Source: a marine bacterium B5-7 (lineage in GTDB: Bacteria > Pseudomonadota > Gammaproteobacteria > BQJM01). From it: a DNA stretch of 64,000 bases. The stretch spans positions 502-64,501 of the forward strand of contig BQJM01000004.1 of NCBI GenBank assembly GCA_021604705.1, read 5' to 3'. Shown here one piece after another: positions 23,677 through 40,208 of this stretch. The notes under the pieces are model-generated. The model ran no database searches and was not told the DNA's origin. It saw only the letters and a program-made list of their open reading frames with translations. Numbering within the stretch: position 1 is the first letter of the stretch; every line of letters starts with the position of its first letter. Made by a program: the position numbers and the translations under genes.

Positions 23677-23900
23677 TTGTCATCCCGCACTTGATGCGAG
23701 ATCTTCTGATGTCACTATGGTGTCTGATGGAGATTCCGGCTCAAGGCCGGAATGACAAGAGGGCTGTCATCCCGCACTTGATGCGGGATCTTCTGATGTC
23801 ACTATGGTGTCTGATGGAGATTCCGGCTCAAGGCCGGAATGACAAGAGGGCTGTCATCCCGCACTTGATGCGGGATCTCCTGAGTGCACTGCGGTGCTGG
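23677..23900. repeat. Tandem amplification (about 2.5 copies of a 92-bp unit) of the composite element, nuoG/nuoH spacer
   Basis: The unit gtcatcccgcacttgatgcgRgatcttctgatgtcactatggtgtctgatggagattccggctcaaggccggaatgacaagagggct occurs twice, then a partial third copy. This produces the artefactual 70-aa ORF 23691-23903. Confidence 0.9.
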
Positions 23901-23912
23901 TAAACGAAACGA

Positions 23913-24959
23913 GTGATTGAAACTATGATAGAAAAGTTACTTCAGCCCTTATTGCCACTCCTCTGGATTATAGGCAAAATCTTATTGGTTGCTGTGCCCT
24001 TGATCGGCATTGTGGCATTCCTTACGTTAGCTGAACGTAAAGTGATTGGCTTTATGCAAGTTCGTATTGGCCCCAATCGTGTAGGGCCACGTGGTTTGTT
24101 CCAACCGATTGCTGATGGGATCAAACTGTTAACCAAAGAAATTATTTTTCCGACGGTATCTAATAAATATTTATTTATTATTGCGCCGGTACTGACCATT
24201 GCGCCTTCGTTGGCGGCTTGGGCTGTTGTGCCCTTTGGCGATGGTTTAAGTATTGCAAACATTAATGCCGGCGTACTCTATATCTTAGCGATGACCTCGT
24301 TGGCGGTATACGGTATTCTGATTGCGGGCTGGGCATCTAACTCTAAGTATGCGTTTTTGAGTGCGATGCGCTCTGCGGCACAAACCATTTCCTATGAAAT
24401 TGCGATGGGTTTTGCGTTGGTCTGTGTTTTGATGGCAGCAGGCTCCATGAATCTTGGTAAAATTGTTATGGCTCAGCAGGGCGGTATTGTGCATTGGTAT
24501 TGGTTGCCGCTTTTACCCGCCTTTGTCGTCTACTGGATTTCTGGCGTAGCAGAAACTAACCGTGCACCATTCGATGTTGCAGAAGGTGAGTCAGAAATTG
24601 TGGCGGGCTTTCACGTTGAATATTCAGGCATAGCCTTTGCTGTATTTTTCTTGGCGGAATACGCCAACATGATTTTAGTCTCTGCGCTTGCTGCCTTATT
24701 TTTCTTAGGTGGTTGGCTATCTCCGTTTGAAGGGACTGTGTTGCAACAGTATGTGGCATTTGTACCGGGTATGGTTTGGTTTTTTGCGAAGATTGCGTTC
24801 TTCCTTTATGTTTATTTATGGCTCCGTGCGACATTTCCACGTTATCGATATGATCAGATTATGCGGTTGGGCTGGAAAGTACTCATTCCTGTCACGATTG
24901 TGTGGATTGCAGTAGAAGCGGTGATGATTCAAGCCCATGTGGCACCTTGGTTTGGGTAA
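23913..24959 (+). CDS. nuoH: NADH-quinone oxidoreductase subunit H
   Basis: 348 aa. Polytopic NuoH/ND1 ([42 protein letters not shown]). Confidence 0.96.
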
Positions 24960-25461: not shown

Positions 25462-25617
25462 TGTCATCCCGCGCGGATGTGTGTCTGCCGGGGGAATAGC
25501 TGTCATCCCGCACTTGATGCGGGATTTCAGGTGACTTAGTCATCCCGCACTTGATGCGGGATCTCCTGAAAGCACTATGGTGTTAGACGGGGATTCCGGG
25601 TCAGGCCCGGAATGACA
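25462..25617. repeat. Array of palindromic modules including a third module type C, nuoI/nuoJ spacer
   Basis: tgtcatcccgcgcggatgtgtgtctgccgggggaata (module C) + two module A copies + spacer + ggggattccgggtcaggcccggaatgaca. Overlaps the upstream part of the tool's nuoJ ORF. Confidence 0.85.
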
Positions 25618-25635
25618 CCGAAAATAGAGGAAATT

Positions 25636-26221: not shown

Positions 26222-26372
26222 TGTCATCCCGCGCGGCTGTGTGTCTGCCGGGGGAATACAGCCGTCACCCCGCGCTTGACGCGGGGTCTCCTGATAGTAC
26301 TAGCAAGTACGCTAGCATCTGATGGAGGTCCCGCGTCAAGCGCGGGATGACAATCTCAAGCCCGGAATGATA
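26222..26372. repeat. Array: module C + variant A + spacer + A' + half module, nuoJ/nuoK spacer
   Basis: tgtcatcccgcgcggctgtgtgtctgccgggggaatacagccgtcaccccgcgcttgacgcggggtctcctgatagtactagcaagtacgctagcatctgatggaggtcccgcgtcaagcgcgggatgacaatctcaagcccggaatga. Confidence 0.85.
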
Positions 26373-31680: not shown

Positions 31681-31783
31681 GCGCGCTATTTAATTCTTGC
31701 ACCCCTTATTCACGAGCTAACTGGACAACCTAGGTGTTTTGGTTCACAGTTCGTATCAATTTTTTCGGACAAGGAGGACTCTA

Positions 31784-32533
31784 ATGAAAAATCTCACCGC
31801 TTTTATAGGTGTTGTGCTGACGGCGAGCCTTTTGTTTTCTAGCCAAGCTGAGGCTTATGGCTTATTTTTCAATGCTGGCGCAGGTCTTCAAACCCAAACA
31901 AATAAGGTGGCTCCCAATATTTCCCTCACTTATACTGAAAGTGGTGCTACAACAGCTGCTTCAGCAAAAAGCATGCTAGAGGCGATCCAACCAGCAGCAG
32001 AATTTCAGTTTGGTTACGATGCACTAATCGGCAAACACCTTTACTGGGGTAGTAACCTTTTTTTGAATACCTCAACGGGACAAAAAAGAACATACAGCAC
32101 GCACGCAACGGATACGGAAGGTAGCTCGGTAACTAACTTGGCTGTGAATCTTAAAAATAAGTTTGATCCTCTTGCTGGTGGTATTGATTTTAGGTTGGGT
32201 TATGGTACAGAAAATACCGCGATTTTCAGCATCTTGGGTATGAGCGTTACCGGCATCGATACAAGTGTCGAAGTAAGTTATAACATTACTGGCGATTATC
32301 CTGATAGTGATTATGCCGTTGGCAACTTTAGGAAAATCGTTGCTGGTGTTCGTGCCGGTGTTGGCTTGCAACATATGTTTACAGAAAATTGGGGTGTTTA
32401 CATGCGCTATGTTTATACTCAATACCAAAAATATTCAAAACATATTGAAACTAGCGATCCAGTTTCAACATTTGATAAACATGATGCGCCATATACGCAA
32501 TCCAGTATGGTAAGTGTCGTATATTCTTTTTAG
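31784..32533 (+). CDS. Outer-membrane beta-barrel protein (OmpA/OmpW-like family, uncertain)
   Basis: Start set at MKNLTAFIGVVLTASLLFSSQAEA|YG (signal peptide, AGGAGG RBS). Alternating hydrophobic beta-strand pattern. The C-terminal ...VVYSF aromatic terminus is typical of OMPs. Confidence 0.65.
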   Translation: MKNLTAFIGVVLTASLLFSSQAEAYGLFFNAGAGLQTQTNKVAPNISLTYTESGATTAASAKSMLEAIQPAAEFQFGYDALIGKHLYWGSNLFLNTSTGQKRTYSTHATDTEGSSVTNLAVNLKNKFDPLAGGIDFRLGYGTENTAIFSILGMSVTGIDTSVEVSYNITGDYPDSDYAVGNFRKIVAGVRAGVGLQHMFTENWGVYMRYVYTQYQKYSKHIETSDPVSTFDKHDAPYTQSSMVSVVYSF

Positions 32534-32593
32534 ATAATGCAGTTTTCTCTGGCTGTGTAATATTTGCGCTAGATCTGCGTTTTTATCACGCCC

Positions 32594-32613
32594 CTTAATA
32601 CTTCCTTAAGAAT
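32594..32613 (+). promoter_or_regulatory. PmrA-like tandem box (cTTAATAcT-tc-cTTAAGAaT) upstream of the 32673 gene
   Basis: Two direct repeats with 11-bp periodicity. Resembles the Legionella/Coxiella PmrA regulatory element cTTAATatT-N2-cTTAATatT found upstream of Dot/Icm effector genes. Confidence 0.35.
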
Positions 32614-32672
32614 CGCTTGATATCCTGATCGGAATACTAATTAAAAAGCATCATTTTAGCAGGAGGTATACC

Positions 32673-33434
32673 ATGGGTAGCACAGCAGTAGCACAGAAAT
32701 CAGGTTCATCTAAGAAAGATCTAGAACATACTGTTGGTACAATGCTGACCTCTATTGAGCTGATGCAGCATTTGATGGGGGATGAGCTAACAACAGCGAA
32801 AGATAAACTTATCGAGCAGCTTAAAGAATATACTGCTGATGTGGACATGGCCTTGGGCTCAAAACAAGTAAGTATGCTCATGTTGGCTGTTCAAATACGT
32901 GACCTCGTAAAAGATTCACAAAAGCAAGCATTCAATGATGTCATTGCAGCACTTGTTGATAAAGGTGCAGATCTCACCGCAAGACAGTTTGAAGCCTTGC
33001 ACAGAAAAGAGGTGAAAAATTTTCTCGGATTGGGAGATGAAAATAGGGCGCAGCTAAAGAGTTTGTTGTTTTCCTATGTGAAGCCAACAAAAAATTTCTT
33101 GGGCCTGAAGGTTGAAAAACCCAATGAAGCTATTGTCTTGGAGATACTGAGGGACCTACATTCTTGGGATTGCGGAATCTATAATAAAAAACCGGCGAGT
33201 AACAGAGCGCTTTCGGAAGAGGTAGAACAGGATGAACTACAAGAGACGCTGAATCTTATGCATAAAGGCGCTTCACCAGTAAATATTATTACAAAACTGC
33301 ACCAGGCCATGCAGGGATGTAGTAAACAGGATGCATTTACTCTGCTTGTTCAGGAATGTATGAAGTTAATGGATGACAGCGCACCTGCACCAACCCCGCC
33401 AGTGAAGAGTGTTGATACAAGGTTTATCCTTTGA
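32673..33434 (+). CDS. Hypothetical protein, candidate type IV effector
   Basis: 253 aa, hydrophilic, no recognised domain. Internal KNFLGL repeat. Preceded by the PmrA-like box and an AGGAGG RBS. Confidence 0.7.
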   Translation: MGSTAVAQKSGSSKKDLEHTVGTMLTSIELMQHLMGDELTTAKDKLIEQLKEYTADVDMALGSKQVSMLMLAVQIRDLVKDSQKQAFNDVIAALVDKGADLTARQFEALHRKEVKNFLGLGDENRAQLKSLLFSYVKPTKNFLGLKVEKPNEAIVLEILRDLHSWDCGIYNKKPASNRALSEEVEQDELQETLNLMHKGASPVNIITKLHQAMQGCSKQDAFTLLVQECMKLMDDSAPAPTPPVKSVDTRFIL

Positions 33435-33435
33435 G

Positions 33436-33588
33436 TGTCATCCCGCGCTTGACGCGGGATCTCCATCTATAACCGCAGTACTACCAGGAGATTCCGGCTT
33501 TCGCCGGAATGACGGCGGTGACACCAGGCGGTCCCAGATAAGTGCTCCGCATGTTTCTGGGATGACAAGCTCAAGACCGGGATGACAT
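33436..33588. repeat. Array of palindromic modules (A + spacer + A' + degenerate copies)
   Basis: tgtcatcccgcgcttgacgcgggatctccatctataaccgcagtactaccaggagattccggctttcgccggaatgacggcggtgacacc...gggatgacaagctcaagaccgggatgaca. Confidence 0.85.
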
Positions 33589-33595
33589 CTTTTTT

Positions 33596-34204
33596 TCAAA
33601 CATTCAAATAAACCACATAACCTGCACTAAACAGCATGATCATCGCAGCGATGTGATTAATATGGCGAGCAATAAAGCCTTTGTTTTCCCTGGCGCCAAC
33701 AATACGACCCAACACGGTCATACTAATAAACCATAACCATGATGTGAGAATGCACCCTGTCGTAAATAACATGCGATCATGACGATGATAACTCATGGCT
33801 GCGGTACCAATCACGCCAATTGTATCTAAATAAGCATAGGGATTTAATAAAGAGACTGAACAAGCAAACAGAATTTGTTTTTGCCAGGACATACGTTGCC
33901 GCGGGGCATTATTTTTGTTATCAGCCGGTGTTTTCCAGAGTTGCCATGCGATAAAGAGTAAGAAACAGACGCCAACGATGACCATGGCCATCTTAATCGT
34001 GGGAACTTCCAGTAACACGGCCGAAACACCTAGGACAGCTAAGAGAATCAGTAGGGTATCGCAAATGCCGGCGGTGATCACCGCTGGGGCGGCTTGCCAG
34101 AGGCGTGGCTGAGTCGCACCTTGCGATAAAATAAACGCATTTTGCGGTCCAAGTGGCAAAATTAGACCAAATGCTAACAACATTCCCTGAATGAATGCTT
34201 CCAT
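33596..34204 (-). CDS. LysE/RhtB-family amino-acid exporter
   Basis: 202 aa. MEAFIQGMLLAFGLILPLGPQNAFIL N-terminus typical of the LysE/ArgO family. Six TM segments. Confidence 0.85.
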   Translation of the reverse strand: MEAFIQGMLLAFGLILPLGPQNAFILSQGATQPRLWQAAPAVITAGICDTLLILLAVLGVSAVLLEVPTIKMAMVIVGVCFLLFIAWQLWKTPADNKNNAPRQRMSWQKQILFACSVSLLNPYAYLDTIGVIGTAAMSYHRHDRMLFTTGCILTSWLWFISMTVLGRIVGARENKGFIARHINHIAAMIMLFSAGYVVYLNV

Positions 34205-35939: not shown

Positions 35940-36019
35940 CGTCATCCCGCGCTTGACGCGGGATCTCCTGATGGAGATGCGGTGATAGATGGAGATCCCG
36001 GCTCAAGGCCGGGATGACA
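35940..36019. repeat. Composite palindromic element
   Basis: gtcatcccgcgcttgacgcgggatctcctgatggagatgcggtgatagatggagatcccggctcaaggccgggatgaca. Confidence 0.85.
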
Positions 36020-36038
36020 GGATGTTAAACAAGGAGTA

Positions 36039-40179: not shown

Positions 40180-40208
40180 TGTCATCCCGCATTTGATGCG
40201 GGATCTCC
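40180..40208. repeat. Single module-A palindrome
   Basis: tgtcatcccgcatttgatgcgggatctcc. Confidence 0.8.

Follow-up and report, generated by a model that had tools for sequence, protein, structure and literature searches.

A PmrA/BasR-like box with an extended -10 element upstream of an orphan gene in the marine bacterium B5-7

What kind of signal could control a gene whose product resembles no other protein, and does the DNA in front of such a gene tell anything about the lineage that carries it? This question is raised by the region upstream of position 32673 in a 64-kb stretch of DNA (hereafter, the window) from marine bacterium B5-7, a MAG that NCBI places under unclassified Gammaproteobacteria. 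The gene starting at this position (32673..33434, + strand; GenBank GJM06603.1, DHS20C10_03370) encodes a 253-aa ORFan, and its record bears the title 'MAG: hypothetical protein DHS20C10_03370 [marine bacterium B5-7]'. An initial annotation of this DNA had pointed to a tandem repeat in front of the gene, described as a close match to the PmrA element of Legionella, and had taken it as support for a Legionellales origin.

The repeat is located in an intergenic region of 139 bp with 37% GC, between an OMP beta-barrel gene (31739-32533, +) and the 253-codon ORF. On the + strand, the box is formed by CTTAATACT (32594-32602), TC and CTTAAGAAT (32605-32613), two direct 9-nt units with a period of 11 bp; the two 9-nt half-sites with 11-bp spacing that had been described are therefore borne out by direct reading at 32594-32613. 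The hexamers contained in these units, CTTAAT-ACTTC-CTTAAG (32594-32610), make up a direct YTTAAK pair with 5 bp between them, as is required of a PmrA/BasR box. The G at position 6, present in the CTTAAG of the second half-site, is a common enterobacterial variant (PMC3973317). Seven nucleotides downstream of the box there is a TATCCT (32621-32626), and the TG at 32618-19 converts it into the extended -10 element TGaTATCCT (32618..32626, +), in which T1, A2, T3 and T6 of the hexamer match and the N7 spacing of the matrix is kept. The whole is in sense orientation with respect to the gene, with the site 79 nt upstream of the ATG and the end of the box 59 nt from it, in agreement with the earlier placement about 60 nt upstream of the ATG and before a plausible -10. 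A degenerate third 11-bp unit, CTTGATATC (32616-24), overlaps the -10 element. Membership of the box in a repeat or mobile element was ruled out, as no repeat family extends over 32534-32672. Rfam showed no RNA family within the intergenic region, and only two tRNAs over the whole window.

From the position of the -10 alone, transcription is predicted to start at 32633 (+/-2 nt, + strand), which would leave a leader of approximately 40 nt and would put the first half-site at about -39 to -31 and the second one at about -28 to -20. A promoter scan found no sigma-70 -35/-10 pair on the + strand of the region, which fits an activator-dependent promoter; the box lies over the -35 position, with N7 to the -10 hexamer, the TG extension and no -35. 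A Shine-Dalgarno sequence, AGGAGG (32661..32666, +), can be read 6 nt upstream of the ATG. Within the predicted leader (32630-32666) there are two GGA motifs, one in CGGAAT near 32631 and the other in the Shine-Dalgarno AGGAGG, both read from the sequence only; arrangements with two GGA motifs are of the kind bound by CsrA in Legionella effector mRNAs. At the other end of the intergenic region, a hairpin followed by UUUUUAU (32537..32586, +) may be a weak terminator of the OMP beta-barrel gene; its folding energy (MFE -14.2 kcal/mol, z-score -1.47) is not significant, and it was not called by the terminator scan.

To score the site we used the published L. pneumophila PmrA PSSM, a matrix built from promoters whose regulation by PmrA is experimentally established and taken from the supplement (Burstein 2009, PMC2701608 Table S5), which describes a 33-nt object composed of a 9-mer, N2, a second 9-mer, N7 and a -10 hexamer (PMC2701608). 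The window site is in register with this matrix and obtains 25.5 of 35.0 bits over the 33 nt, and 22.3 of 25.9 bits for the box alone; it outscores 79% of the sites drawn from the PSSM, a value that rises to 93% when the box is taken alone. Both half-sites together agree with the matrix at 16 of 18 informative positions (the first one follows PSSM positions 1-9 except for the C at 8). The -10 TATCCT is mediocre, its 3.2 bits falling in the lower quartile of the model. The second-best position in the window, considering both strands, reaches 18.1 bits and is inside nuoG, on the wrong strand. The claim of a close match to the Legionella PmrA element holds well: the match is real and strong, with 25.5 bits and an exact N7 to the -10.

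The score was compared with several expectations. In 300 nulls generated from the window with a first-order Markov model, the highest score was 20.7 bits, and 25.5 was never reached. By exact convolution under an iid model, the probability is 1.3e-9 per position, equivalent to 1.6e-4 sites expected per window; the expectation increases to 1.5e-3 per window with a background of 37% GC, and is about 0.006 per 2.5-Mb genome at P = 1.3e-9. With a threshold of 18-20 bits, some 0.01-0.1 chance sites would be expected in a genome. The pattern TTAANANT-N3-TTAANANT has one match in the window against 0.02 expected. A looser test, in which the 18-base consensus may be missed at as many as 3 positions, is weak: it has an expectation of 0.15 and found a match in 14 of 100 shuffles. 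It should be noted that all these figures concern a motif selected after the fact among many possible known motifs. The observation stands, and its statistical basis is robust.

When 23 upstream regions of the window were scored, the site turned up solely in the one preceding the 32673 gene, and the other 22, which include those of ANK, LRR, Fic and orphan genes, gave nothing above 4.5 bits. An enrichment of the motif in front of ANK/LRR genes, which had been suggested as a check on the initial annotation, was consequently not seen in the window, where the ANK, LRR and Fic genes are without it. The presence of a single site, with ANK, LRR, Fic and other orphan genes nearby that lack one, weighs against the reading that we propose.

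That reading, which we hold to be probable though far from assured on the basis of its sequence features, is that the site is a functional PmrA-family box within a class II promoter activated by a regulator of the PmrA/BasR family. We infer that a PmrA-like regulator is present in the B5-7 genome, that it binds here and that the site activates transcription. The mechanism that we propose involves an OmpR-family response regulator of the PmrA/BasR/QseB subfamily, which would bind CTTAAT and CTTAAG head-to-tail as a phosphorylated dimer (at about -39 to -20). The repeats would take the place of the absent -35, making the promoter activator-dependent and of class II, with the dimer bringing RNA polymerase to the extended -10 element, TGaTATCCT. 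Transcription from around 32633 would then give a monocistronic mRNA in which the coding region of the 253-aa ORFan is preceded by a leader of about 40 nt and has a strong Shine-Dalgarno sequence.

The strongest argument in favor of a functional site comes from the recurrence of its layout in at least three uncultured genomes. One example is contig L121 (ENA ERZ23497388 scaffold_20), which belongs to the nearest relative, whose PNPase is 74% identical to that of B5-7; the contig keeps the gene order of the window from rimP through coaE, at approximately 70% nucleotide identity. L121 was searched as part of all the fetched loci, and one matching site was found in its 22 kb, at 2374-2406 on the minus strand: TTTAAGATT-CT-CTTAAGATT-TCTATGA-TAACAT, with 22.4 bits and an E of 7e-4 to 5e-3 for the locus. 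This site also has a TGn before the -10, and, just as in the window, 46 nt separate the end of the -10 from the ATG, which here is that of a gene for a 1579-aa ankyrin-repeat protein (1-2327, -). A word-indexed search with the N-terminal 775 aa of this protein gave no match, not even to itself, probably as a result of swamping by ankyrin and low-complexity sequence. The comparison of L121 with the window also showed that the gene for the substrate-binding component of an ABC transporter and its permease/ATPase genes, adjacent in L121, are separated in the window by about 5 kb (51392-56500); this insert contains a DUF4172-Fic gene and several Pfam-less ORFs, and looks like an island of host-interaction genes.

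A further example is L071, a contig of 8.5 kb binned as Nitrosomonas sp. NMNS01 (BQJA01000120.1), which carries three PmrA-like boxes (1513-1545, 1625-1657 and 4230-4262) together with the same REP element that is found in the window. The box at 1513 has no -10. One site of this contig, with 30.1 bits, shows the N7/-10 layout 42 nt before an 844-aa Pfam-less ORF, and another, with 15.6 bits, has the same N7/-10 layout with TGaTACAAT and precedes a 268-aa Pfam-less ORF by 41 nt. This contig may have been mis-binned from a host-associated bacterium. With the exception of L071, no site of 19 bits or more was found in about 810 kb of loci from unrelated phyla that had been retrieved as matches to a REP probe. 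Taken together, a box followed by N7, an often TG-extended -10 and a leader of 41-46 nt is found before lineage-specific genes in at least three uncultured genomes.

Regarding the gene itself, no Pfam match was obtained for the 253-aa ORFan, and searches for homologs, one among 5.8 billion clustered proteins and one with phmmer among 1.84 billion representatives, gave the self match only. Since there are no orthologs, conservation analysis or phylogenetic footprinting of its promoter is impossible. The codon-usage index is best in the annotated frame, and the product is hydrophilic (GRAVY -0.27, pI 5.9; gene GC 42%) and predicted to be soluble and all-alpha; a single-sequence AlphaFold2 model is all-helical, with a pLDDT of 37 that makes it unusable. 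By inspection, neither a signal peptide nor a transmembrane segment was seen. Directly after the stop codon there is a cluster of REP-like palindromic elements (33436..33590), followed by a convergent LysE gene (33596-34204, -), and for this reason the transcription unit is considered monocistronic.

These REP-like palindromes deserve a separate comment. The element, an abundant intergenic palindrome with the sequence GTCATCCCGCRCTTGAYGCGGGATCTCC, occurs at least 14 times in the window, and its copies frequently come in pairs that form units of about 85 nt; besides the cluster at 33436-33590, copies are located at 2162-2248, 4586-4614, 7988-8052, 16515-16601, 19363-20012, 23678-23915 (three tandem units), 25488-25624, 26257-26353, 35940-36026, 40180-40208 and 61978-62070. 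A 28-nt pattern derived from it, degenerate at two positions, is matched exactly in at least 120 genome stretches from very distant phyla, including Balneolaceae, Bacteroidales, Saccharibacteria/Patescibacteria, Alpha- and Gammaproteobacteria, Sulfurimonas and Dependentiae, and none of the matches listed is from B5-7.

Could the ORFan be an effector? By analogy with Legionella and Coxiella, it may be secreted, act on a host and share its regulation with a secretion system, an interpretation that we regard as tentative. The C-terminal signal of Dot/Icm substrates consists of a Glu-rich E-block lying about 10-17 residues from the C-terminus, together with residues that are small or polar and a hydrophobic one at -3 or -4. 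The tail of the ORFan, DDSAPAPTPPVKSVDTRFIL, is rich in Pro, Ser and Thr, ends in ...VDTRFIL with F at -3 and has many small or polar residues, and there is no Glu at positions 9-17 from the end, that is, no E-block, which weakens the effector interpretation. Neither homology nor a eukaryote-like domain links the protein to known effectors, in view of the absence of Pfam matches and of any match other than itself.

The genomic surroundings provide the context for this interpretation. The window carries housekeeping operons (dnaK, ftsH, nuoA-N, nusA-infB-pnp and secA) and also eukaryote-like genes, namely LRR+ANK (8123-9202), ANK (13692-14687) and DUF4172-Fic (52202-53356), apart from several Pfam-less ORFs; the eukaryote-like genes suggest a host-associated lifestyle. 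Among the proteins encoded in the 64 kb there is no response regulator, histidine kinase, PmrB or dot/icm gene product, and tblastn with E. coli BasR gave no match in the window. One of the ANK genes is also adjacent to a direct repeat of about 62 nt (families D7 and D10), with copies at 14677-14738 and 15281-15343: one copy spans the region of the tpiA start codon, and the other follows directly on the stop codon of the ANK gene at 13692-14687. Such an arrangement suggests that the duplication arose on insertion of the ANK gene or of the intervening ~540 bp.

As for the origin of the lineage, the support for Legionellales that had been seen in the motif was not borne out. The best relatives of the PNPase are two ENA proteins, P0004 (74% identity) and P0003 (slightly higher score); the latter was dropped as a useful relative, its contig L123 having 64% GC. 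The remaining PNPase matches, from Woeseia, Chromatiales and generic Gammaproteobacteria MAGs, plateau at 69% identity, and there is no member of the Legionellales among the best 120. The CoaE protein is more similar to PDB 1VHL (156 bits) than to 4TTP (126 bits), which we take to be the E. coli and the L. pneumophila CoaE, respectively. These PNPase and CoaE comparisons, which are single-marker best matches and not a phylogeny, give no support to a Legionellales origin.

The motif leads to the same conclusion when the Legionella matrix is applied to E. coli K-12. The box just before eptA, CTTAAGGTT-GG-CTTAATTTT, obtains 21.8 bits, and the one before pmrR, CTTAAGGTT-CA-CTTAATCTC followed by N7 and CATACT, obtains 17.3 bits; both keep the N7 spacing, and their scores are near the 22.3 bits of the window box. 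Both eptA and pmrR are known PmrA/BasR targets. Since these boxes score alike with the Legionella matrix, the motif is no indicator of Legionellales: the box and the N7 spacing belong to the whole PmrA/BasR subfamily, and judged by these scores they are neither Legionellales-specific nor effector-specific. As a caution, then, the box alone should not be used as a taxonomic marker for Legionellales, given that E. coli BasR sites look alike.

This similarity also bears on the alternative that survives best, although we consider it unlikely: the site could be a genuine PmrA/BasR-type box belonging to an ordinary envelope or stress regulon, as in the case of eptA, arn and pmrR, and the ORFan could be a cytoplasmic or envelope-related protein with no role in secretion or in the interaction with a host. 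Not only are the E. coli BasR boxes indistinguishable by the Legionella matrix, with a like N7 spacing, but neither PNPase nor CoaE shows any sign of Legionellales affinity, the window has no dot/icm gene and the tail of the ORFan lacks an E-block. However, the ORFan has no envelope features, having neither a signal peptide nor a transmembrane segment by inspection and a GRAVY of -0.27; eukaryote-like genes (ANK, LRR and Fic) are numerous in the genome, and the sole further site found in this lineage, that of L121, stands before the gene of a giant ANK protein.

Less probable still is that the repeats are bound by something else, either another OmpR-family regulator with TTAA half-sites or a nucleoid protein, possibly acting as a repressor that occludes the promoter. 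Direct repeats with an 11-bp period are generic for regulators of the OmpR/PhoB family, the third degenerate unit over the -10 could mean that this element is occluded, and the cognate regulator is itself only predicted. Against another binder, it is the sequence of the half-sites, beyond their spacing, that fits the PmrA matrix at 16 of the 18 informative positions, and against a repressor speaks the absence of a -35, which argues for activation. Finally, it is very improbable that we are dealing with a chance resemblance in AT-rich intergenic DNA, with the promoter elsewhere or with read-through from the upstream OMP gene: the region has 37% GC, the motif was picked post hoc, the loose consensus test was matched in 14% of the shuffles and the OMP terminator is weak, but the PSSM predicts 1.6e-4 to 1.5e-3 chance sites per window, the score was attained by none of the 300 nulls, the box is correctly oriented, correctly spaced (N7) from a TG-extended -10 and at the right distance from the ATG, and the layout is seen again before the ANK gene of the relative L121.

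Returning to the reading of the site as a PmrA-family box that activates transcription, its implications depend on how far it is carried. PmrA/BasR-type boxes are already a known kind of regulatory site, to which the site before the 32673 ORFan would probably be added. If a PmrA-like regulator binds here, the site would offer the first functional handle on a protein without detectable relatives, and the ORFan would belong to a regulon under signal control in an uncultured marine bacterium that is associated with a host. If that regulon also turns out to be linked to a secretion system, the box would serve as an inexpensive way to predict orphan effectors outside Legionella and Coxiella, comparable to its use with the ceg genes of L. 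pneumophila. Going one step further, the box layout, with N7, a TG-extended -10 and a leader of about 45 nt, may mark a host-interaction regulon composed of ORFan and ankyrin proteins, in an uncultured marine gammaproteobacterial lineage outside or at the very base of the known Legionellales, a proposal that we put forward as doubtful. Were it true, the control of effectors by PmrA would predate Legionella and Coxiella and reach beyond them, and effectors without homologs in uncultured host-associated bacteria could be recognized by the box.

In enterobacteria such as Salmonella and Klebsiella, the PmrA box, which has been characterised structurally, is CTTAAG/T-N5-xTTAAT and PmrA binds head-to-tail (PMC3973317). 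With the enterobacterial PmrA/BasR boxes of eptA/pmrC, pbgP/arn and pmrR, the window site has in common identical hexamers, a 5-bp spacer and N7 to a -10-like hexamer; the enterobacterial targets are LPS-modification genes, whereas the window site precedes an ORFan, and the genome around it abounds in eukaryote-like genes. A more distant likeness is found in the class II activation by PhoB/OmpR regulators, in which a tandem winged-helix dimer occupies 11-bp direct repeats over the -35, the pho box replacing the -35. The general mechanism would be the same, with TGTCA as the half-site in PhoB and CTTAAT here.

The closest resemblance is to the PmrA element of L. pneumophila, reportedly described by Zusman in 2007 as cTTAATatT-N2-cTTAATatT-N7-TAtaaT before ceg/effector genes. 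The traits in common are two 9-nt direct repeats, the N2, the N7 to the -10, the lack of a -35 and a short leader; also as in L. pneumophila, the downstream gene encodes a small hydrophilic protein of unknown function, and the score is above that of a typical site of the model. Unlike the L. pneumophila element, the second half-site has a G at position 6 and the -10 is TATCCT with a TG extension, and the host is an unclassified marine gammaproteobacterium whose affinity with the Legionellales is not demonstrated and whose 64-kb window contains no PmrA, PmrB or Dot/Icm. Direct activation by PmrA extends to about 42 effector genes in L. pneumophila. The PmrA site of C. burnetii is present at 68 or more promoters, five dot/icm operons among them (PMC4117601). 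While C. burnetii has dot/icm operons under the site and our window has neither dot/icm nor pmrAB, the site belongs to the same family, which in that bacterium co-regulates the secretion system and many lineage-specific ORFan effectors.
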